A stretch of DNA of 59,670 nt, counting the filler, from Globobulimina sp. (taxonomy: Eukaryota): the NCBI GenBank assembly GCA_003354225.1. It is 12 parts of 12 records of this genome, joined end to end, with 100 filler letters (N's around TTAATTAATTAA, not from the genome) between each part and the next. Parts side by side here need not be neighbours in the genome. Positions count along the whole stretch, not along the records: positions 9,975 to 14,860 come from PIVH01000869.1; 11 more parts are not named here. One strand, written 5' to 3'. A program made the position numbers and the translations under genes. Below are positions 4,889 through 53,754 of this stretch, piece after piece; position 1 is the first letter of the stretch, and the number at the start of each line of letters is the position of its first letter. The notes under the pieces are model-generated. The model saw only the letters and a program-made list of their open reading frames with translations. It was not told the DNA's origin and ran no database searches.

Positions 4889-4988
4889 NNNNNNNNNNNN
4901 NNNNNNNNNNNNNNNNNNNNNNNNNNNNNNNNTTAATTAATTAANNNNNNNNNNNNNNNNNNNNNNNNNNNNNNNNNNNNNNNNNNNN
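4889..4988. other. Artificial contig linker (first of 11; others at 9875, 14861, 19846, 24831, 29815, 34793, 39771, 44748, 49724, 54699)
   Basis: Identical 100-nt N44-TTAATTAATTAA-N44 spacers that put stops in all six frames; flanking contigs decrease in length from 4888 to 4872. Confidence 0.98.
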
Positions 4989-9874: not shown

Positions 9875-10088
9875 NNNNNNNNNNNNNNNNNNNNNNNNNN
9901 NNNNNNNNNNNNNNNNNNTTAATTAATTAANNNNNNNNNNNNNNNNNNNNNNNNNNNNNNNNNNNNNNNNNNNNTTTTTCATTTTTTGCTCCAACTTTGA
10001 GTGTTTTCATATCAATTTTAAAACCTGATGGCATTTGTATTTTTCCTCGTTTCTGTTGGATATCAATGATTAATGATAAATATATTTG

Positions 10089-13000
10089 TCATATATTGGA
10101 TTTAACTTTTTCGGCATTGATTATTTGTTTGGCTTGTTTGAAATTTATATCTTGTAAATGTTCCTCACTTTTTACGAATTTGAGGAAGTGCGTTGCATTT
10201 TTTGGTTCACATTTGTTTTTCTCACAGAATGCATTCCACGATGGATGCGTATATTGCTCCTTCCGCAATGGCTGATTATCTGTACAGGCCTTGAATTTAA
10301 TTCTATAAACTGGAATGGCCGTATAATCCCTCCAAACAACATAAATTGACGGATTTCTTGTATTATCAACAAATGTGTCGTATTCTGTTTGATTCGGTTT
10401 TAAAGGCACTTTTTTAATTGAACTCGAACCTTTTGTTGAATCGCCAACAATTACTTTACATAATAAAATATATTGATATCCATTTGAATGTGTTGGGCAA
10501 TAACCAGTGACAGTGTAACCTGCATCTCTTGCAAAATACATTCCATTTCCATACGCAGACACTGTACTGTATGATGGATCAAATCCGTTTTGAATTATTA
10601 TGTTTGACACATGATATGATGAACCATACCATACATATTTCTCAATTTCGTCTCTTGTTTTTTTTAATTCATCACATTTACTCAATAAACTTAACTCATA
10701 CAATCGATTTTGTTTTGGTAGCATAACCTCCTCAATGTCAATAATTTGAATATGTGCGGAATCGACTGTTTTATAGAATAATTGTTTTATTTCATCATCC
10801 ATTAATTTATTATCATCATTTTGATGAATTTCAGTATTATATAATTTATCTTTATTTACACCCTCATTTCCTACAACAACATCCTCGATATCTCGAAACC
10901 AATCTGCATATTTCCCAACATTCTCATATTTATGGAATGCATAAATACATTGTGTGGGGTTTTTGCATTTATTTGTTTTTCGTTCCCATTCGCAAGCTAC
11001 AAGAACTGTGTTTGGATTCGCATGAATGCGATTACAATGGGCATTGCATCGAAAACTAAGATGAGAACATAATTTGCCATAATACCAATCTTTTGTATAT
11101 TTCACTGCTTCTGTGTCTTGGAGGTATTTCAGATTAATGTTATCATGTTGTTTATTGTTGTGGAGCATCACAAAAACCATTTATTATTTCCCAAAAACAA
11201 ATAGTTTTAATACTATGAGGTTGCACATGTTTTAATGTGCAGGATGCCCTCTTATCACATCTCGATTTAATATGAACACAGATCTTGCCATCAAACCATT
11301 GTTTTTTCAGTGCATTTAATTTTGCTGCTTTTTGAGGGCTCTCCTTCCGTTCTCTGCATATGTCTGTATTTTCCACTTTGTTGTCATCACACACATTGCC
11401 ATACGGTCGAAGATAACCAATTTGTTTGTCCCTTCGCGGAATTATGCCGCATTTTCTTTTTGATTTATCAGGTTTTGTTAAATCAATAGCTTTACAAACG
11501 CCTTGCTCTGTATTTATTAATTTAAATTGTACCGCATCGCCTTCATTCAATGATTGGTTTTTACATTCTTGTGAAGCATAGTCCACTTTAATATTTTTAT
11601 ATGTATCATCTAAATCAAATTGTATTGTACCATCAGATAAAGATATTTGTGTAATATGTCCACGAAATACAACTATTCGTGAATATTTTGTATTGGTTGC
11701 ATATTCAATGATATTTTTATTTTTGCGTTGATAATATTTGCTTTCTAAGTGTTTCGATTTCTGAACGGAACAATTTGTCCATTCATCAGGACCTTTCATT
11801 GCTTTTTCTCGCCATAAAAATGTAATTGGCAGAAATTTAACGGTTACACATTTCAAATTTGGTACGCCATTTTCGTCCTCATCCCGCTCAATTTTATACG
11901 AAATCATATCACCTTCATTCAAAAAAGATGCATCAAAATCGCATTCATCAAATTCAAACAATACATTATATTTTACGCCATATTGAACATATCCCATTCT
12001 TTTATCTGCATTTAATCGTTTAATTTTGCCTTCAAATCGCTTTGTTTTTTACGTTTTGTATATAGTTATATGTTGTTTATGTTGTGTGTCAAGTGTTTTT
12101 TCTATACATATCCGGATATTAACTCAACAGTGTATCTCTTTAAACGTTTTCCATTCAAATTCAACTCACTTTCCATATTTAAATGATTTGGATTATACAT
12201 ATTTTCATAATCAACACATTGTTGATAAGTGCATTTATTCCATCTTTTAATAATATAATTAAATTCTCGCCATTTATAATCCAAAATTACAAAGGTAACC
12301 TTTGTAGCTTTTGCGTTTTCAACACAATATTCAACTAAACAACTTTTCTCAATATCAATTTCAGCGCATGCATCTAAATCAAATCCAAGCAATGTATTCA
12401 ATTTTGTTGACCAAATATAACCTCTTTGTTGAAATGTATTTACTTGTTGTACTCTGTCAATATATCTGTTTAGTTTGGCTGTTGGAGCTGATGCTGATGC
12501 TGATGCAATTTGTACTGGTTCAAAAGTAGGAGCTTCAGCCTCTGTTTGTGCAGTCGCAATAGGCATGGAAGGTGAAGGTGAATCCGCTATCTCTTTTGAA
12601 ATAATTTTAATATCAACCGCTCGAAAGCCTGCGTATTTTGGAGGAGTACTGTAAAATTTGAGTGAATATTCTAATTTATATCCCGTTCTCAATGGATTAG
12701 AAGCATTTATGTGCTCATTTCTAAAATCTCCATAATAAAATGCAACACCAATTGACTTATTTTGTTGTGGATAATTTGGCTCAACAAAACCCATCGTTTG
12801 TTTTAGAATTTTAATAACTTTACCTTCAAATCTTGTCATGCGTCGCCGTCGAAATGAGTCAAATGAGCCAAGTGCTTCAAAGCCATTTGCTTCAAAGCCA
12901 TTTGGTAACCACTTATTGTGAGCATTACATTGTTGTTCATGTCGTAGAGATTCATAATGACTGCACCATATCCACTGACTTTCAACATCATCATCACCCT

Positions 13001-13661
13001 TATCAGTTACTTGTATTTTGCCTTCAAATACATTCTTTTGAGTTTGTACCTGTTTTATTTGCCATCTGTACGGTAAAATTGTTAATTTTTTCCACGGACC
13101 TTGCAATTATCGTGCTTTGTAATTGTTGTTTCTATTCTGGTTATTATAAGCCCCTCTGTTATAAGCCATGGGTGCTCTCCTCATTCCTCTTACGAATCTT
13201 CCTCGTGCTCTGTTACTATTATACGATTGATATCTATCTCTACCGACACTGCCTATCCCTCTCCCTCGTGATCGGTTATTGTAATTATTATAATGGTGAT
13301 ATCCTCTGAGGCCTCTGTTGCTTTTGAATCCCATATTTCCACGATAGTTATATTGACCTCTGACACCTTCATTGCTTTGATAGTTAGTGTATTGAGTTGG
13401 ATTTTTTGCGTAAGATCTACATTTTTCGACGGTAATAACTTTAATTACTAAATTGTGTCTTCCATGTTCATCAAACGCGTTTTGCAAATCATCGTTTTCT
13501 TCAATTTCGCAATCGTCGGTGTCTCTAAATTGTACAGTATGTGTTTCCGGCAATGTATCATATAATGCTGTTTTCATTTTTAACTCGCCCATAGTTGGTC
13601 GAGTTAATGTGACATGCACATCACCAGCATTTGCATATTTCAATAGCACAGAATAGCTCAT
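10089..13661 (-). CDS. ZAP/PARP12-like multidomain protein: PB1-like, RGG, WWE-like x3, cold-shock/OB x4, CCCH x3-4, PARP catalytic domain (split over 4 ORFs)
   Basis: PARP motifs WYGS, YGNGMYFARDA, ILLCKVIVG, PSIYVV; LPYRWQ and W-x7-W..E..Y WWE-like blocks; RFEGKxK...GY/GF...LNEGD cold-shock-like blocks. Clean intron 12040-12107. Breaks at 13107 (in-frame TAA) and about 11152 (frame change) are either introns or lesions. Confidence 0.8.
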
Positions 13662-13790
13662 TCTGACTATGCGATGACTAGCTCGCTCTGACTTTTTGAA
13701 TTAACGCAAGAGGGCAAACAATTTTCGACTTAGGTTGTTTCACTCTTCAAAACTTTCAACATAAAAAAACAAATCAATACAAAATATCAT

Positions 13791-14860
13791 TTACTGTGAA
13801 GAATTTCTAACCAAAGCATCAGACCGTATCCTTTCCAATGGTTCAGGTGTTGTACTCACAGTTTTATGTAACGAGCCTGCCATATTTGCAAAATTTGGGG
13901 ATAAATTATTATTATCATTACTATCCTTACTCTCATCAATACTCACTACCTTATCATCATTTGGACTGTTTACATCCATACATTGTTCGCCCAACAATTC
14001 CTCCCTCGTCGTCTTCCTTTTCAGCGCCGTAAATCCGCCCAAATCCTTTAACAAATCCTCTGCATTCATCACCTGTTCTTTCTTTTCTTTCTTCTCTTGT
14101 TTTTTGTCATACTCATTACTCGCGGCGTGTGCCAATGCAATTAATCCTTCAAATGAGGTATTTGAGGTCGACCGCTCCGGAAATCCCTTTGGTAACACAG
14201 GTAACTGCGATATCGACAACTCGCTATATTGCACATCTAATAGCGATGCATTGCCATTTGGTTTGCTTTTATTCTCATTTTGCAAGTGTGGGATATGGAA
14301 ATCTGACAAATTTATGCCTAATTTGTTCGCTTTGTTTGCGTTTTGCGTGCTATTTGTGGGTGTATTCCTGCCTGAATTACTGTTACTTTTCCGGTCCATA
14401 ATGGGCGGTATGAATATAATGGGAGCATTGGGATTTGCTATGTCCATTGCTGGTGATTTTGCACCTGAATTCATGGCGGTGTCCACCATACTTTGCGCCA
14501 AAATGTTCAATGCGTCCGGATCCAACGTTTGATTGCTTAATAATGGACGGTGCATCACTGGGAATCTGTAATTAAAAATGTGCAAACAATCAAAAAACAT
14601 TTTTTATATTTCAAACATACATTGGTGGGTTTGGTGGGAAATAATTATTATTCTGCAACACATTGATATTATGATTATGATGATGGTGCGTAGTAATTAT
14701 CTCATTTAGCCGCAGCTTATTAGTATGAAATGGTGGTGGCATATTTGCAATATTTGGCGGTATATTGGCCTGATACATGTTGGGTCTCCCTTGTTGTAGC
14801 AATCTATGCCGCATTGGTTGGGGCGGTGGCGGTCGATGGTGATTTTTAGCAGACATTACC
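13791..14860 (-). CDS. Low-complexity (Pro/Asn/His-rich) hypothetical protein, two or more exons, probably 5'-truncated
   Basis: ORFs 14611-14856 and 13791-14600 can be joined by a short GT-AG intron near 14566-14620. Confidence 0.55.
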
Positions 14861-15063
14861 NNNNNNNNNNNNNNNNNNNNNNNNNNNNNNNNNNNNNNNN
14901 NNNNTTAATTAATTAANNNNNNNNNNNNNNNNNNNNNNNNNNNNNNNNNNNNNNNNNNNNATCATTATTTTGTAAATTATTCCCCAAACACTCTCAAAAA
15001 CCAATCAGTTCATTTTTCAAATATGTAACAATTATATGTGTCTTTTTCTGTTGTGTCAGCACT

Positions 15064-24830: not shown

Positions 24831-24930
24831 NNNNNNNNNNNNNNNNNNNNNNNNNNNNNNNNNNNNNNNNNNNNTTAATTAATTAANNNNNNNNNNNNNN
24901 NNNNNNNNNNNNNNNNNNNNNNNNNNNNNN

Positions 24931-26917
24931 GCTCTGCACTTTGCGGTTCGATTTACGCGATTTGCGTTTTCTTTTTTTCGTGGCATAGTCGCTGTCGCTG
25001 CCACTGTCCTCCTCTGCGTCTGAGTCATTATTCTTGTTCTTATTCGATTTATCATTTCCTTTATTAATCTCGTTCTCAATCTGCTGCAATATTTTATAAG
25101 CTTCGGCAATGATGCGTTTACTCACTTTGCCCAATGGCAATTTGGCCGCATCGTAGCCAATCTCCTTCATCTGCGTATCCATCATATCCTTATCAAATAT
25201 CAACTGCACTAATTCCTGAATGCCGTCATCCAATTTGCTCTCACATTTATGCTCCTCGCTGCCGTCAAATACCGCATCGTCGCCATCTCCCTCTGCGTCG
25301 GCCCCATAATCCATCGGTAAATACATATATTTCCCGGCACGAAATTCAAAGTCATCGCGGTCGTCCCAGTCATTCAAGGTTTTATCATGAAATTTCTTCA
25401 TAAATAACGCAATACTTTGCTGTTTAGTGCCGTCTACTTCTCGGTGCTGCCCTGTATAACCAACGCGTGCCCATCGAAAGTAAGTACAATATCGTTCGGT
25501 GGTGTCGTGCTTTAAGACGTGTATTTTATACATTTTGTTGTTGTTGTTACCGATGTTGGTCTGATTCAACATGGCGTCGTATACCACACCATCCTCTTCA
25601 TAGACACTCCACTCCGGGCCGCGGGAAAAAAACTCGTCGACGGGCGCACTGCCTCGGAACTTATGTGTCTTCGTTACGGACTCTTTCGGGCCTTTACCGT
25701 CGGTGTCATTATCATGGTTATTGTCGTCGGATTTTGTTTTTTTTTTCTTATTCTTGTCGCTCATTTTAATATCTTCATCGTCACTCTCGCTCTCATCCTC
25801 ACTCTCTTCGATGATATATTTATCATATTTTAATTCCTCTTTTTTTGCAATACAATCATGCAAATAGTCTTCGCCCACAATGGGTATTTTTAACTTTATG
25901 GCAGTGGCACATTTGGTGGATTCCAAATTAGCGCCGACGGTTTTAACTAATACGACATCTATTTTTGCAGTGGTCGCCGGTTTAACAGTCCCGTCATTGT
26001 CTCTTATTAATTTCTTAATGGCGCTCTGCGATTTGCTGAAGCCGCCACTCAGTACAAATGCAACACCACCAAATATACCTTCCTCTTCTTCCTCTGATGA
26101 TGATGGCTCCTCTTCGTCCTCTGATGATTCCACAATGCTCCATTTATTACGCATTTTAAGCTGTAAATACAAACAAAAATAATTATTTCACAGCATTTTG
26201 TGGGAACATTTATAGAAATGCATGAAACCAAACTACTAATAAATGCAATGCCTCATCGAATGCGTCTTGTTTCGAATCGGCTCTTTTTACCAATTTCCTG
26301 CCCTTTGTGCCAATTTTGCCTTCAACGATGGAATAGGTTTTGTTTTCGTTGATAACCACTTCGTATTTCTGCTTTTCATCTTTGTCCTGTAATAAAACAG
26401 AGGAAACCTCCAACATCGGACGTAATACTTTCTCATTCTTTCTATCATTGGAATCATATTCATCTTCGTCGTCTGGTTCTGAGGAGGAGTCAGATGAAGG
26501 GGTGGGAGTTGGTGCCTTTTTCTTTTTTTTTCTGCTTTTTCTGGTGTTGGTTTTGCGTTTTTTAGCTGGAGGCTGCTCAGAAGAGTCCGACGCGTCTTCA
26601 TCGCTCGAATAATCCAACTGTTTTCTTTTTCGCCCTTTGGTTTTCTGTTCGCAATATCCAGCGTCCTTTTTTTTACGTATCAGAGCTTTGGCGTTGGTCT
26701 CGCATTTTTTTCTGGATGCGAATTTTTTGGGGCTCATGGTGCGTCCGCTACAGCCGAGCTTGCCATAACGAATGGTAAAGGATTTTTCTCCTACTTTTAT
26801 TTCCCAGAATTTTCCTCCTGCGCTCTGTATTGTTTTTGTTTGTACGTTTTGGTAATGTCCAAATGCGAAATGTAATACAATTTTACATACTGTATCTTGT
26901 GTCAAATAAACTTTCAT
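24931..26917 (-). CDS. PARP1/2/3-type poly(ADP-ribose) polymerase (WGR-like x2, BRCT, WGR, regulatory domain), 3'-truncated, with introns
   Basis: KFWEI...IRYGKLG; IFGGVAFVLSG (BRCT); YDAMLNQTNIGNNNNK...RWARVG; SKLD...LIFD...LPLGKVSK. Confidence 0.88.
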
Positions 26918-50182: not shown

Positions 50183-50250
50183 TCACCCGACCATGTTTGT
50201 CTTTGCTTTAAGAAACGTTTATTGAATCTGGTTATTCGCATTGTCATATC

Positions 50251-53200
50251 ATGGGTAGAAGTGATGGATTATCAACAAAAGTTACATATGGATCACAAAT
50301 AAGGACAAAACAATGCTTTACGTGTGGTAGAGAAAATAATGAAACTGTAAATATTAACGGTGCTAATATATCAGTCAAATTGCATTCAATTACAGCTGAA
50401 AAAGCTGCATATTTATGGTTTAAAAAAAGGGTTTCGTTACACCCAAAAAGAGATAAGATTTGTAGTTTATGTACTGACAAATCATTGGAACAACTGATAA
50501 TTATACCGGATAATATATGGGAGCGCAACACCACTAATTCCTCCGTCGCAGATGATAATCAAAATCGAATAATTCAAAATTTGATTGGTTTATTTTGTAG
50601 TGCATGGTATCGTTTATTATTAAAAGAAAGCTTTGAAATCTTATTAAATAAATCAAGGCGCAAATTGGATACAGACAATGGGAATATTACCAATGAAGAA
50701 TGTGAAATATTAACAAATGTTGATTTAGGTAAAATAGATTCTTTAGCAACATTTGCATTGGAAAACATTCAAAAACATTGTGATTTAAGTTATGATGAAA
50801 TTGTTAAAATAATTGATATTAATAAAAAAAATGATAAAAAGTTATTTGAATTTGTTGTAAATAATGATGATATTAAACAAGAAGAAAAACAATTGGATGT
50901 TGCTGAGAGTGAGGAAAGTGAAGAAGCGAAAATGGACATTTTGGAAGACAGTGATTGCATTGACTTGGATTTAAATGTTGATATATCAAACAATACCAAT
51001 AACAACATTTTACATTCAAATCCCCGAAATCATAACAGAAATTCCAACTGGAATTTCAACCCAAATCCCAACATAAACTCCGACCCAAATCCCAACATAA
51101 ACTCCCACACAAATCCCAACATAAATTCCCACCGAAATCACAACATAAACTCCCACCCAAATCCCAACATAAACTCCGACAGAAATCCCAACATAAACTC
51201 CCGCCCAAATCCCAACATAAACTCCGACCGAAATTCCGACATAAATTCCCACGCAAATCCCAACATAAATACGCAGCTAAATCACAACTTTAATATTCAC
51301 CCAAACTCCAACATAAATAACCTCCTAAATCCAAACTTAAATAGCCACCCAAATCACAATTATCGCAGAAATTCCAACACGAATTCCAACATAAATAACC
51401 CTCAGAATCCCAACATAAATACCCGCCCAAATCCCAACATAAATAACCATCGGAATTCCGACATAAATTCCAACGCAAATCCCAACTTAAATAACAACAC
51501 AAATCCCATCTTAAATACTCATGAAAATCTCAATATAAATACTCTCCCAAATCTCAACATAAATTTCAACGAAAATCATAACCCAAATCTCAACATAAAT
51601 TCCAACTCAAATGCCAACATAAATAGCCATATAAATATCAACATAGATAACTATCCAAATATCAACATAAATCCCAACACAAATTCTGACCCAAATCCCA
51701 ACTTAAATAACAGCCCAATTACGAACAGCAGCAATTTAAATGCTGAAGATGATGACAAAGATGAACAAAAAGAAACTGCCATTGACGCTTATGCTAAAAA
51801 AAGATTAAAAAAAAATCTATTTTTTTTTTTAGTCAAAAGCAAAATCAGAACGGCGAATGAAATATTAGGTGTTTATCATGGATATTCAGAAAAGGCGATA
51901 CGAAGACATTTTCACAGAGCACGTGTTATATTGTGGACATTTGTAACTCCATATTGGTTAGGTATCAATCATTTAACACGAGAGGCTTTATTAGCAAAAC
52001 AATCAGATTGGGCAAATTTAATTAATATTTTAACAGGAAAAAATTATATATTATTTGGTGATGGTATGAAAATAAGACAACATAGATTTACAGGAAATTT
52101 TGATCACAACTATAACAGTTATGATCCAGGTAAACATTATAACACTCGTGGTTTTATGGGTTTATGCACAACCACTGGATATTGCATTGATTTAATTGGT
52201 GGTTTGTGTACAAATGGCTCGCATGGTGATAGTCATGTTTGGAATTGGATAATACGTACTAATCATAATAATATTAATTCAAAATTAAATATAAATGAGG
52301 ATTTATTAGGTTTTGACAGAGGTTGGAAATTTATGATGGCACATTCACCGTATTGGATGTTATTGCCAACTCTGTCAAAAAAAAAACCAGTTGACGCATT
52401 TTTAATTAATTGCTCACGACTACATACAAATAATCGATGGATAAATGAGGCATTATATGCCCAATGGAAAAATTCTTGGGATGTATTCCGCTCAGTAATA
52501 TTACATTGTCATCGAATGTATATAAATTCATGGTTAAAAAATATTGCTGCTGTACATAATTTCATTAAACCTGATGGATTTGTAAATGATCATGATGAAA
52601 ATGATAAATTTATGAATTATTTCAAATATAAAATTAAAACTGAATTTTATCAAAATCATATTCAAGATATTGTTATTGAATTAGAATCAATGCATAATAT
52701 GATATACAGACAACCAACTGATGATGAAATATGGCACGAGGTAGATGCATGGGAATTACCACGAATTGTTCCAGGTTTTAGTCATTTTCGACACTTAGAA
52801 AATGAAGAAATAAAAATATATTCAGGTGGTCAGTATGGATATGAACAAAGGATTGGATATATTGCACATAATAATGCTGGCAATATCAGATTATATGTCC
52901 ATGGTGCACAGATAAAATATCTGCAATGGTTAGAGTTAAATGATATATTAGATCGAAAAATGCGTGTAGCTGAGCGAAATGATGATACCGAAGCCATACA
53001 ACAATTATTAGAAGAACGTGATAGAATCGATGAGGAGTCTGCATTGACCTGGAAATGGAAATATATTGTGGTCAAAGTGGCAGGCATTAACTCAAGGCAT
53101 ACCCGCAGCAACAATCCAAAAACCATCTATTGCAATTACTGGGCTTTTGATAATACTGGTTATTATAAAGAACAACTTGCAGACCAGTTACAAGTAACTC

Positions 53201-53754
53201 ATCATATATTAAACAACAATATCAACAATAATTCCAACAATAATTCCGACACTAATTCCGACACTAATTCCGACACTATTTCCAACAACCAACGACATTC
53301 ACACAACAGCAACTCGAATAATAATAATTTAGTGGATGATATACAATCTGATGTTGATATTAATATGAATGATGATGTTGTATTGGATTTACCTGTGGAT
53401 GAATTTGAATTTGATGAAAATAGCATTGAATATCAAAAATTGGTTGAAATACAGGAGTTTCAACTCAGGAAATTATTCACAAAAACTAATATTAATGCTT
53501 TGGAATATAATGATAATATTATTCCGACACGAATTAAATTTATTAAAAGCTATTGCGATCCTTGTTCTCATGGAGCAAGGACTATTGGATGCTGTGCACA
53601 TCGAACTATGTCACTTGAATTAATACGTGATGCTTTACTTGGACATGATCAGTTTACTCCGCATAAAATATCCAAAAAACAAGGTGATATTTTAATAAAT
53701 ATAGAAAAAAAACATCAGTTCACCAAAACACGACCAGGTCGTTGGTGGCAATAA
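50251..53754 (+). CDS. DDE transposase (DDE_Tnp_4-like) with N-terminal Cys motifs, Asn/Pro repeat insert and C-terminal SWIM-like finger
   Basis: FGDG, GKHYN, GDSH, FDRGW, SRLHTNNRWINE core; C-terminal YCDPCSHGARTIGCCAH. Confidence 0.82.
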   Translation: MGRSDGLSTKVTYGSQIRTKQCFTCGRENNETVNINGANISVKLHSITAEKAAYLWFKKRVSLHPKRDKICSLCTDKSLEQLIIIPDNIWERNTTNSSVADDNQNRIIQNLIGLFCSAWYRLLLKESFEILLNKSRRKLDTDNGNITNEECEILTNVDLGKIDSLATFALENIQKHCDLSYDEIVKIIDINKKNDKKLFEFVVNNDDIKQEEKQLDVAESEESEEAKMDILEDSDCIDLDLNVDISNNTNNNILHSNPRNHNRNSNWNFNPNPNINSDPNPNINSHTNPNINSHRNHNINSHPNPNINSDRNPNINSRPNPNINSDRNSDINSHANPNINTQLNHNFNIHPNSNINNLLNPNLNSHPNHNYRRNSNTNSNINNPQNPNINTRPNPNINNHRNSDINSNANPNLNNNTNPILNTHENLNINTLPNLNINFNENHNPNLNINSNSNANINSHININIDNYPNININPNTNSDPNPNLNNSPITNSSNLNAEDDDKDEQKETAIDAYAKKRLKKNLFFFLVKSKIRTANEILGVYHGYSEKAIRRHFHRARVILWTFVTPYWLGINHLTREALLAKQSDWANLINILTGKNYILFGDGMKIRQHRFTGNFDHNYNSYDPGKHYNTRGFMGLCTTTGYCIDLIGGLCTNGSHGDSHVWNWIIRTNHNNINSKLNINEDLLGFDRGWKFMMAHSPYWMLLPTLSKKKPVDAFLINCSRLHTNNRWINEALYAQWKNSWDVFRSVILHCHRMYINSWLKNIAAVHNFIKPDGFVNDHDENDKFMNYFKYKIKTEFYQNHIQDIVIELESMHNMIYRQPTDDEIWHEVDAWELPRIVPGFSHFRHLENEEIKIYSGGQYGYEQRIGYIAHNNAGNIRLYVHGAQIKYLQWLELNDILDRKMRVAERNDDTEAIQQLLEERDRIDEESALTWKWKYIVVKVAGINSRHTRSNNPKTIYCNYWAFDNTGYYKEQLADQLQVTHHILNNNINNNSNNNSDTNSDTNSDTISNNQRHSHNSNSNNNNLVDDIQSDVDINMNDDVVLDLPVDEFEFDENSIEYQKLVEIQEFQLRKLFTKTNINALEYNDNIIPTRIKFIKSYCDPCSHGARTIGCCAHRTMSLELIRDALLGHDQFTPHKISKKQGDILINIEKKHQFTKTRPGRWWQ
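51061..51710 (+). repeat. Degenerate 24-bp coding minisatellite (NPNINSxx)
   Basis: Repeated AATCCCAACATAAACTCC-like units in frame within the transposase. Confidence 0.9.

Follow-up and report, generated by a model that had tools for sequence, protein, structure and literature searches.

The locus at positions 10089–13661 on the minus strand of a DNA stretch from Globobulimina sp. (GenBank assembly GCA_003354225.1) raises the question of whether its consecutive open reading frames (ORFs) represent one RNA-binding protein with a PARP domain, and whether such a protein is a relative of the animal proteins PARP12 and ZAP (PARP13), as a sequence-only reading had proposed. The whole stretch analysed, termed the window, is 59,670 nt and consists of 12 pieces of approximately 4886 bases each, which are separated by spacers of the form N44-TTAATTAATTAA-N44. 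The joints appear as N runs (4889–4988, 9875–9974, 14861–14960 and so on), and adjacent pieces are possibly unlinked in the genome. The locus is contained entirely in the piece 9975–14860 (PIVH01000869.1), and all positions refer to the window. With slightly better than even confidence, we consider the locus to be one copy of a gene for a lineage-specific scaffold that would bind RNA and has a PARP domain of impaired catalysis; the resemblance to ZAP/PARP12 would be convergent, and the copy is broken twice as sequenced.

Four ORFs are indeed present head to tail on the minus strand, ORF1 (13107–13700), ORF2 (12102–13106), ORF3 (11152–12048) and ORF4 (10089–11180), and every motif quoted in the sequence-only reading is found in them. 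The longest ORF has 363 aa, compared with a median longest ORF of 98 aa (maximum 208 aa) when the 4.9-kb piece is shuffled 500 times. The closest named relatives are foraminiferal, i.e., Bolivina argentea and Nonionella stella, in agreement with the rhizarian origin that had been assumed.

ORF1 and ORF2 are in the same frame and are split solely by an in-frame TAA (13107–13109, minus strand). Comparison was made with contigs from runs X2 and X6–X8, of which X2 belongs to another study, and per-site and synonymy counts rest on the 40 of 218 base difference rows that are listed. A contig from run X2 (record 6, 10 differences) spans 12517–13712 without a joint, and the TAA-site base is absent from the 40 listed rows. 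The retrieved protein P0008 (76% identical, E 2.5e-122) has an N-terminus of the PB1/ORF1 type and the ORF2 region in one ORF, which is open where the TAA sits. ORF2 and ORF3 are separated by an 89-nt GT..AG intron of phase 0 (12040–12128, minus strand). The joined form is found in an X2 contig and in a loose end from X7, and P0006, a Bolivina transcriptome protein, reads across the junction (...KRLKRYT followed by RFQGKIKRLN). P0008 represents an unspliced ORF call and enters the intron as ORF2 of the window does.

The ORF3/ORF4 junction is a frameshift, an 8-nt shortfall at 11150–11154 (minus strand) inside the second of four zinc fingers. The shortfall produces both the TAA that ends ORF3 and the shift in frame. 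The X2 (95% identical) and X7 (93%) contigs have 8 extra bases at this site and carry ORF3 and ORF4 in one frame. Read by eye, the extra bases add Cys-x4-His and complete a C-x8-C-x5-C-x4-H finger, and the shift exactly fits entry into ORF4; the remaining indels of the X2 contig total multiples of three. Introns that would span the TAA or the ORF3/ORF4 shift were also considered. There are many GT..AG candidates, but the contigs cross both sites unspliced, and only 12040–12128 is joined.

The P0008 ORF, the splice evidence and the in-frame X2 and X7 contigs together indicate that the four ORF parts belong to one gene in the relatives. The proposal that the ORFs form one protein thus stands for the relatives, but this DNA is broken by the TAA and the frameshift in addition to the one intron. 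As sequenced, the window copy cannot encode the full protein (intended product approximately 1160 aa), due to the TAA after the low-complexity linker and the 8-nt shortfall in finger 2. The two breaks represent either a sequence or assembly fault or a variant at both sites, or the recent inactivation of a paralogue.

The PARP catalytic domain (10290..10796, minus strand) is clearly present, with a match to Pfam PF00644 at E 3.7e-16; the score is 59.7 bits, above the cut-off of 26.7. Its triad is Y-Y-I, as had been read from the sequence. Of 24 aligned domains, that of the window alone has Y-Y-I; the other 23 all have H-Y-I and comprise 7 foraminiferal or environmental domains, 2 other environmental ones and 14 from fish PARP12. 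The Tyr codon (TAT, 10626–10628) is confirmed by a contig of X2 (record 2) with 0 differences over 10543–10701, and in the search of the PDB the His of PARP10 aligns with the window Tyr. Apart from this Tyr, the motifs of the NAD site (WYGS, YGNGMYFA, NPSIYVV) are conserved, as in the H-Y-I relatives. According to PMC9189837, PARP13 (triad Y-Y-V) is inactive and is without the His that NAD+ binding requires, and PARP9, with Q-Y-T, is likewise described as inactive.

Downstream of the domain there is a 66-aa C-terminal tail with a TGA stop (10089..10289, minus strand). The relatives do not have this tail; the PARP domains of P0001–5, P0030 and P0031 end 0–5 residues past the closing motif of the ...KFK/...KYK type. 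All five listed differences between the tail and an X6 contig alter the residue.

Comparison with solved structures bears directly on the proposed ZAP/PARP12-like identity. The best sequence matches of the window PARP domain are the catalytic domains of human PARP10 (69.8 bits, E 2.3e-18), PARP14 (63.1 bits, E 2.5e-16) and PARP15 (57.9 bits, E 9.8e-15), followed by RCD1 (50.9 bits), PARP12 (47.8 bits, E 1.1e-11) and ZAP (44.0 bits, E 1.6e-10). Given the higher scores against PARP10/14/15, the likeness to ZAP and PARP12 looks convergent and not orthologous, and the identity that had been proposed is weakened by this score ranking. PARP10, PARP14 and PARP15 are themselves different from the window protein, being enzymes with the triad H-Y-I/L whose partner domains are RRM/UIM or macrodomains (PMC9189837).

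In PARP12 and ZAP, as in the window, CCCH-spaced fingers adjoin a C-terminal clade-3 PARP domain. The window protein also has a short module of the LPYRWQ type in common with the first WWE of PARP12 (Pfam model WWE_4). ZAP and the window both have Tyr in place of the catalytic His, although the third triad residue is Val in ZAP and Ile in the window. The order of domains differs: PARP12 and PARP13 have CCCH fingers, WWE1-WWE2 and PARP, whereas in the window the fingers come after a domain array instead of leading the protein, and there is no canonical second WWE. The models zf-CCCH_PARP12 and WH_PARP12 (PF25261, PF24356) have no match at E<=10 in the window pieces, whereas the fish PARP12 P0033 matches both. 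In P0033 Pfam finds no cold-shock domain, PB1 domain or low-complexity linker, whereas the window protein has cold-shock domains, a PB1-type fold and such a linker. According to Perina et al. (PMC4245714), the PARP7/11/12/13 branch arose within animals, and rhizarian clade-3 PARPs carry unusual domains, e.g., ZnF-RBZ, H_lectin and transmembrane segments.

The N-terminus of the protein, with a start ATG at 13661, is a PB1-like beta-grasp domain (ORF1 aa 1–80; 13422..13661, minus strand). It was modeled with AlphaFold2 (AF2) as part of a 511-aa read-through of ORF1 and ORF2, with X at the stop and a 14-row alignment. Residues 1–80 have block values of 69–95 in the predicted local distance difference test (pLDDT), and display the order strand-strand-helix-strand-helix-strand. 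In the VIA list, ranks 1–8 are all PB1 domains, of which the highest is 4mjs_A (Z 10.3, root mean square deviation (rmsd) 2.4, 78 aligned); general ubiquitin-like folds come after them at Z of approximately 7. The earlier suggestion of a PB1-like N-terminus is thus borne out as a modeled fold. Foldseek with the 511-aa model gives no match at E<=0.001, and its best match is again the PB1 domain 4mjs_A at E 0.028. The PB1 domains of p62/SQSTM1, NBR1, PKC-zeta and MEKK2/3 are alike in fold (Z 8.1–10.3, rmsd 2.4–2.9, 71–78 aligned); the window domain differs from them in that it has no Pfam PB1 match and reaches this Foldseek value only. An acidic stretch (13473–13529, minus strand) of the form D-x-D-D...D-D-L is at what we take to be the position of the OPCA motif, with a basic residue on the first strand. 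The domain is kept in P0008, P0012 and P0021/28, and the acidic stretch is retained in two of four aligned family members. A predicted PB1 self-pairing complex scores 0.00, which gives no call either way.

An acidic block similar to the window PB1 acidic stretch, followed by a helical tail, is visible by eye at residues ~560–686 of P0007 from Nonionella. The PB1-like unit may sit at either end of the protein in this family.

The PB1-like domain is followed by a low-complexity linker of 101 aa that is rich in N, R, Y and G (13110..13421, minus strand; pLDDT <50). This segment had been called an RGG tract, but it has 9 RG and 0 RGG. The linker in P0008 is unrelated in sequence, of similar length and in the same frame.

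In the central part of the protein, OB/cold-shock-like blocks and short WWE-like modules follow each other in alternation as an array. Four such blocks had been proposed, and two of them, C and D, are supported. An AF2 model of ORF3 residues 1–215, also from a 14-row alignment, has a mean pLDDT of 76, with 84–93 over residues 1–130. The best Foldseek matches are the Drosophila Unr structures CSD789, CSD456 and CSD12 (E 1.9e-7 to 4e-6), and the single cold-shock proteins CspA and CspB match with TMt 0.70–0.79. Cold-shock domain C (11830..12039, minus strand; pLDDT 84–93) has its best VIA match in Unr CSD1 (4qqb_Y, Z 10.8, rmsd 1.8, 66 aligned). Cold-shock domain D (11476..11679, minus strand) has OB-level VIA matches only (Z 6.4–7.0), but is recognised by Pfam CSD (PF00313) at 27.4 bits against a cut-off of 27 in the 215-aa piece (best stretch aa 154–189); the value on whole ORF3 is 26.1 bits. 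A PDB search with the family profile gives 5 matches, all of them cold-shock proteins and all weak (E 0.63–1.8).

The other two blocks are maintained in relatives but are modeled with low confidence. Block A (12597..12833, minus strand) is homologous to the N-termini of P0006, P0009, P0016 and P0017 and has pLDDT 35–55. Block B (12282..12467, minus strand) is kept in P0006, P0007, P0008 and P0013, and AF2 places four strands and one short helix in it, with confidence from low to middling. After block D there is the start of a further cold-shock repeat (11398..11454, minus strand). In the family alignment P0006 and P0007 have the whole repeat here, whereas in the window it stops where the finger region starts, a pattern suggestive of the fusion of a finger-PARP cassette to an array that had been truncated.

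Unr/CSDE1 is the best structural match of the modeled array, with a sequence identity of just 11–21%. As in the window protein, other small modules lie between the cold-shock domains of its array, but these spacers are non-canonical cold-shock domains in Unr and WWE-like modules in the window. To our knowledge Unr has no PB1, CCCH or PARP domain.

The WWE-like modules are approximately 55 aa each. Module 1 (LPYRWQ...; 12828..13079, minus strand) is defined by the module alignment, has an insertion of ~27 aa and is modeled mostly with low confidence. Module 2 (YKWREFN...KRLKRYT; 12129..12287, minus strand; pLDDT 86–91) ends at the exon boundary. Module 3 (FLWREKAMKGPDEW...; 11665..11829, minus strand) has pLDDT 84–91, and its last strand continues directly into the first strand of the next OB block. 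Modules 2 and 3 show the pattern strand-strand-helix-strand-strand. In relatives, the homologous module of P0031 matches Pfam WWE (35.1 bits for the whole protein) with a best stretch of 367–398, at profile positions 1–30 of 67, and P0012 matches WWE_4 (PF23466; E 0.0041) at profile positions 1–33 of 55. Within the 14-sequence family alignment, WWE is matched in three members, WWE_4 in two and CSD in one.

A profile was made from 22 foraminiferal modules, after three overlapping or mis-cut ones were dropped. It matches the WWE_4 site, i.e., the first WWE, in 13 of 13 fish PARP12 sequences (8.7–16.5 bits; the best of 380 shuffles is 7.3). By hhalign, the probability of a match to the first WWE of fish PARP12 is 90.7% over 29 columns, and to the second WWE 0.35%. 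The profile matches none of the four sequences P0003, P0005, P0032 and P0034, of which P0003, P0032 and P0034 have a Pfam WWE. A search of the ESM Atlas with module 2 gives no usable match. The three WWE blocks of the sequence-only reading are therefore retained in reduced form, as short modules that resemble the first ~30 positions of WWE/WWE_4, but with no full-domain or Pfam match in the window; from these comparisons we read them as WWE1-type short structural units. According to PMC9720839, WWE1 of PARP13 has shorter loops and no binding pocket, and WWE2 alone binds ADP-ribose. Since the match is limited to the first half of a WWE1-type domain, and WWE1 of PARP13 has no pocket, the proposal that these blocks bind ADP-ribose is unsupported.

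Between the array and the PARP domain there are four zinc fingers by pattern scan (all minus strand): finger 1, C-x6-C-x5-C-x3-H (11227..11280); finger 2, C-x8-C-x5-... (11150..11199), in which the third Cys and the His are removed by the 8-nt shortfall; finger 3, C-x6-C-x3-C-x3-H (11022..11069); and finger 4, C-x8-C-x5-C-x4-H (10932..10994). The paired CCCH fingers that had been noticed are thus two pairs by spacing, of which three fingers are complete and the fourth is cut by the frameshift. Nonionella relatives do match zf-CCCH, in 3 of 14 members, with a best E of 1e-10.

The depth of run X2 reaches 879 over positions 10953–11115, which cover fingers 3 and 4, and is 8–65 elsewhere in the gene. 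From this peak, other transcripts in run X2 probably share the finger 3/4 cassette.

The gene family is known so far from Foraminifera and environmental contigs. At least 12 of the foraminiferal or environmental proteins retrieved have the alternating WWE-like/cold-shock module, and within the family the array is linked to different partners. P0030 (711 aa) and P0031 (801 aa) have the same OB and WWE-like modules and a PARP domain 54–55% identical to that of the window. However, a coiled-coil and a canonical, Pfam-recognised WWE precede their PARP domain where the window has four CCCH fingers, and as retrieved they have no PB1 domain and an H-Y-I triad, compared with the PB1-type domain and Y-Y-I of the window. 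P0010, P0025 and P0027 combine the array with an RG-rich tract and two Pfam-recognised CCCH fingers. The PB1 domain is fused to the array in P0008, P0012 and P0021, and P0012 also has C2H2 fingers of the double-stranded RNA (dsRNA) type. Pfam shows no significant match in P0006, P0007 and P0008.

The sequence-only reading knew of no description of the architecture. The exact domain order is without a match among the database proteins retrieved, but an array with a PARP domain is also present in P0030 and P0031. No description of a cold-shock/WWE array, or of PB1 with PARP, was found in the literature covered, the scope of which leaves out the supplements of Perina et al. 2014 (these may include clade-3 PARPs of Reticulomyxa). 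The combination of PB1, cold-shock domains, fingers and a His-replaced PARP domain has no earlier description in this literature, and is a variation on the clade-3 PARP theme.

We infer the following mechanism for the intact protein. It would consist of a PB1-type domain, a disordered linker rich in N, R, Y and G, an array of WWE-like modules and four cold-shock/OB blocks, two CCCH pairs and a clade-3 PARP domain of the mono-ADP-ribosyltransferase type with the triad Y-Y-I. The cold-shock array and the fingers would bind single-stranded RNA, as in Unr/CSDE1 and ZAP, and the WWE-like modules would be structural spacers between cold-shock domains that do not read ADP-ribose. Self-association may be driven by the PB1 domain together with the low-complexity linker, and the catalytically impaired PARP domain may serve as an interaction surface, as in ZAP-L. 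An antiviral role would be pure conjecture.

Several observations weigh against this reading. At E<=10, Pfam finds none of PB1 (PF00564), WWE (PF02825) and zf-CCCH (PF00642 and kin) in the protein or fingers of the window itself, and ORF1, ORF2 and the finger region match no Pfam family at all. The low pLDDT of blocks A and B leaves their OB fold putative, and the VIA and Foldseek lists are filled by cold-shock and PB1 domains, so that the WWE-like parts are hardly reached. The exact order of CCCH fingers followed by PARP is in no retrieved database protein. The run labels are guessed, as the kind of the comparison runs (RNA or DNA) is not on record. Among the listed differences, a partial set, 1 of 12 is synonymous in the linker at 11304–11516 and 0 of 5 in the tail at 10089–10289, versus 17 of 22 in the neighbouring gene. 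The two lesions, the His-to-Tyr replacement and the few synonymous differences fit decay as well as fast (adaptive) evolution.

These last points lead to the possibility, which we regard as real but rather unlikely, that this copy is a pseudogene, a paralogue that died recently and has no function of its own, with the Tyr as part of its decay. The in-frame TAA at 13107–13109 would be expected in such a copy, as would the loss of the third Cys and His of finger 2 through the 8-nt shortfall and neighbouring base differences, and the window is the sole Y-Y-I among the 24 PARP domains compared. The 1 of 17 synonymous differences points the same way, but the 17 are confined to the linker and tail in a partial list. 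The 95%-identical sister sequence in X2 has a depth of 64.6 versus ~8 for the near-identical contigs, i.e., about 8x; against this, contigs 99–100% identical to the window copy are present in a run of another study, which also has spliced forms. In addition, ~1160 codons are open but for the two lesions in DNA of 33% G+C, where the shuffled median of the longest ORF is 98 aa. The Tyr is also compatible with an active mono-ADP-ribosyltransferase, if Tyr replaces His adequately and the RNA-binding array directs the activity towards RNA or proteins bound to it. The remaining NAD site is conserved and matches that of active H-Y-I relatives, and the closest solved domains are those of the active PARP10, PARP14 and PARP15. 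We give this little credence, as the His is kept in 23 of 23 relatives and is essential for NAD+ binding, and PARP13 (Y-Y-V) and PARP9 (Q-Y-T) are inactive (PMC9189837).

The TAA could also be a genuine terminator, so that ORF1 is a separate small PB1 and RG-rich protein and the rest a second product, or one reached by low-frequency readthrough. It is in frame and is crossed unspliced by the X2 contig. With the standard code, 29 ORFs in the window reach at least 220 aa, and the longest of them 1180 aa; the code is for this reason taken as standard, and a reassigned TAA is ruled out. This separation is very improbable in that the 90 codons that follow the TAA are conserved in frame in P0008 and offer no start codon ahead of residue 90, and PB1 is fused to the array in P0008, P0012 and P0021. 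The least probable explanation is the original one, a relative of ZAP/PARP12 in which three WWE blocks read ADP-ribose. The LPYRWQ motif common to the first WWE of fish PARP12, the CCCH-spaced fingers adjoining the PARP domain and the Tyr for His as in ZAP would all fit it. However, only the first half of a WWE is matched, of the WWE1 type that is pocketless in PARP13 (PMC9720839), hhalign gives 0.35% to the second WWE of PARP12, and the PARP domain scores 69.8 bits to PARP10 versus 47.8 to PARP12 and 44.0 to ZAP. A further point against it is that Perina et al. (PMC4245714) have the PARP7/11/12/13 branch originate in animals.

A bolder extension of the scaffold reading, which we consider unlikely, is that Foraminifera independently built a ZAP-like RNA-surveillance scaffold that is PB1-polymerising and condensate-prone. 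RNA would be read by a new composite repeat, in which a short WWE1-type module is fused to a cold-shock domain, and by CCCH fingers, and a pseudo-PARP domain would provide a signalling surface. The shuffled partners of the array (PARP, CCCH, dsRNA-type C2H2 and PB1) and the excess of residue-changing differences would then be the trace of an arms race against viruses or mobile elements.

The remaining features of the window are separate from this gene. The DNA is AT-rich, with a G+C content of 0.27–0.42 across the window, in which no tRNAs are found. The upstream neighbour ORF (13791–14860, minus strand) has no Pfam family and a depth much above that of the PARP gene. Its 55-nt GT..AG intron (14566–14620) is spliced in all four runs compared, so the runs contain spliced forms, and 17 of its 22 listed differences are synonymous. 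The ORF at 24886–26187 (minus strand) has BRCT (E 1.4e-10), WGR (E 4e-18) and PARP regulatory (E 4.6e-19) domains and represents a PARP1-like gene; Perina et al. describe rhizarian PARP1 homologues as lacking BRCT (PMC4245714). The 1180-aa ORF at 50212–53751 (plus strand) has a weak DDE_Tnp_4 match (E 7.3e-4, under the cut-off) and is possibly a domesticated or active transposase.

PARP12 and ZAP represent the textbook link of RNA sensing to ADP-ribosylation, and are regarded as animal inventions (PMC4245714). CCCH fingers, WWE1-type modules and a His-less PARP domain brought together independently in a rhizarian protein would represent convergent design. The window protein adds cold-shock and PB1 domains to this combination, and points to the features that matter for such proteins.

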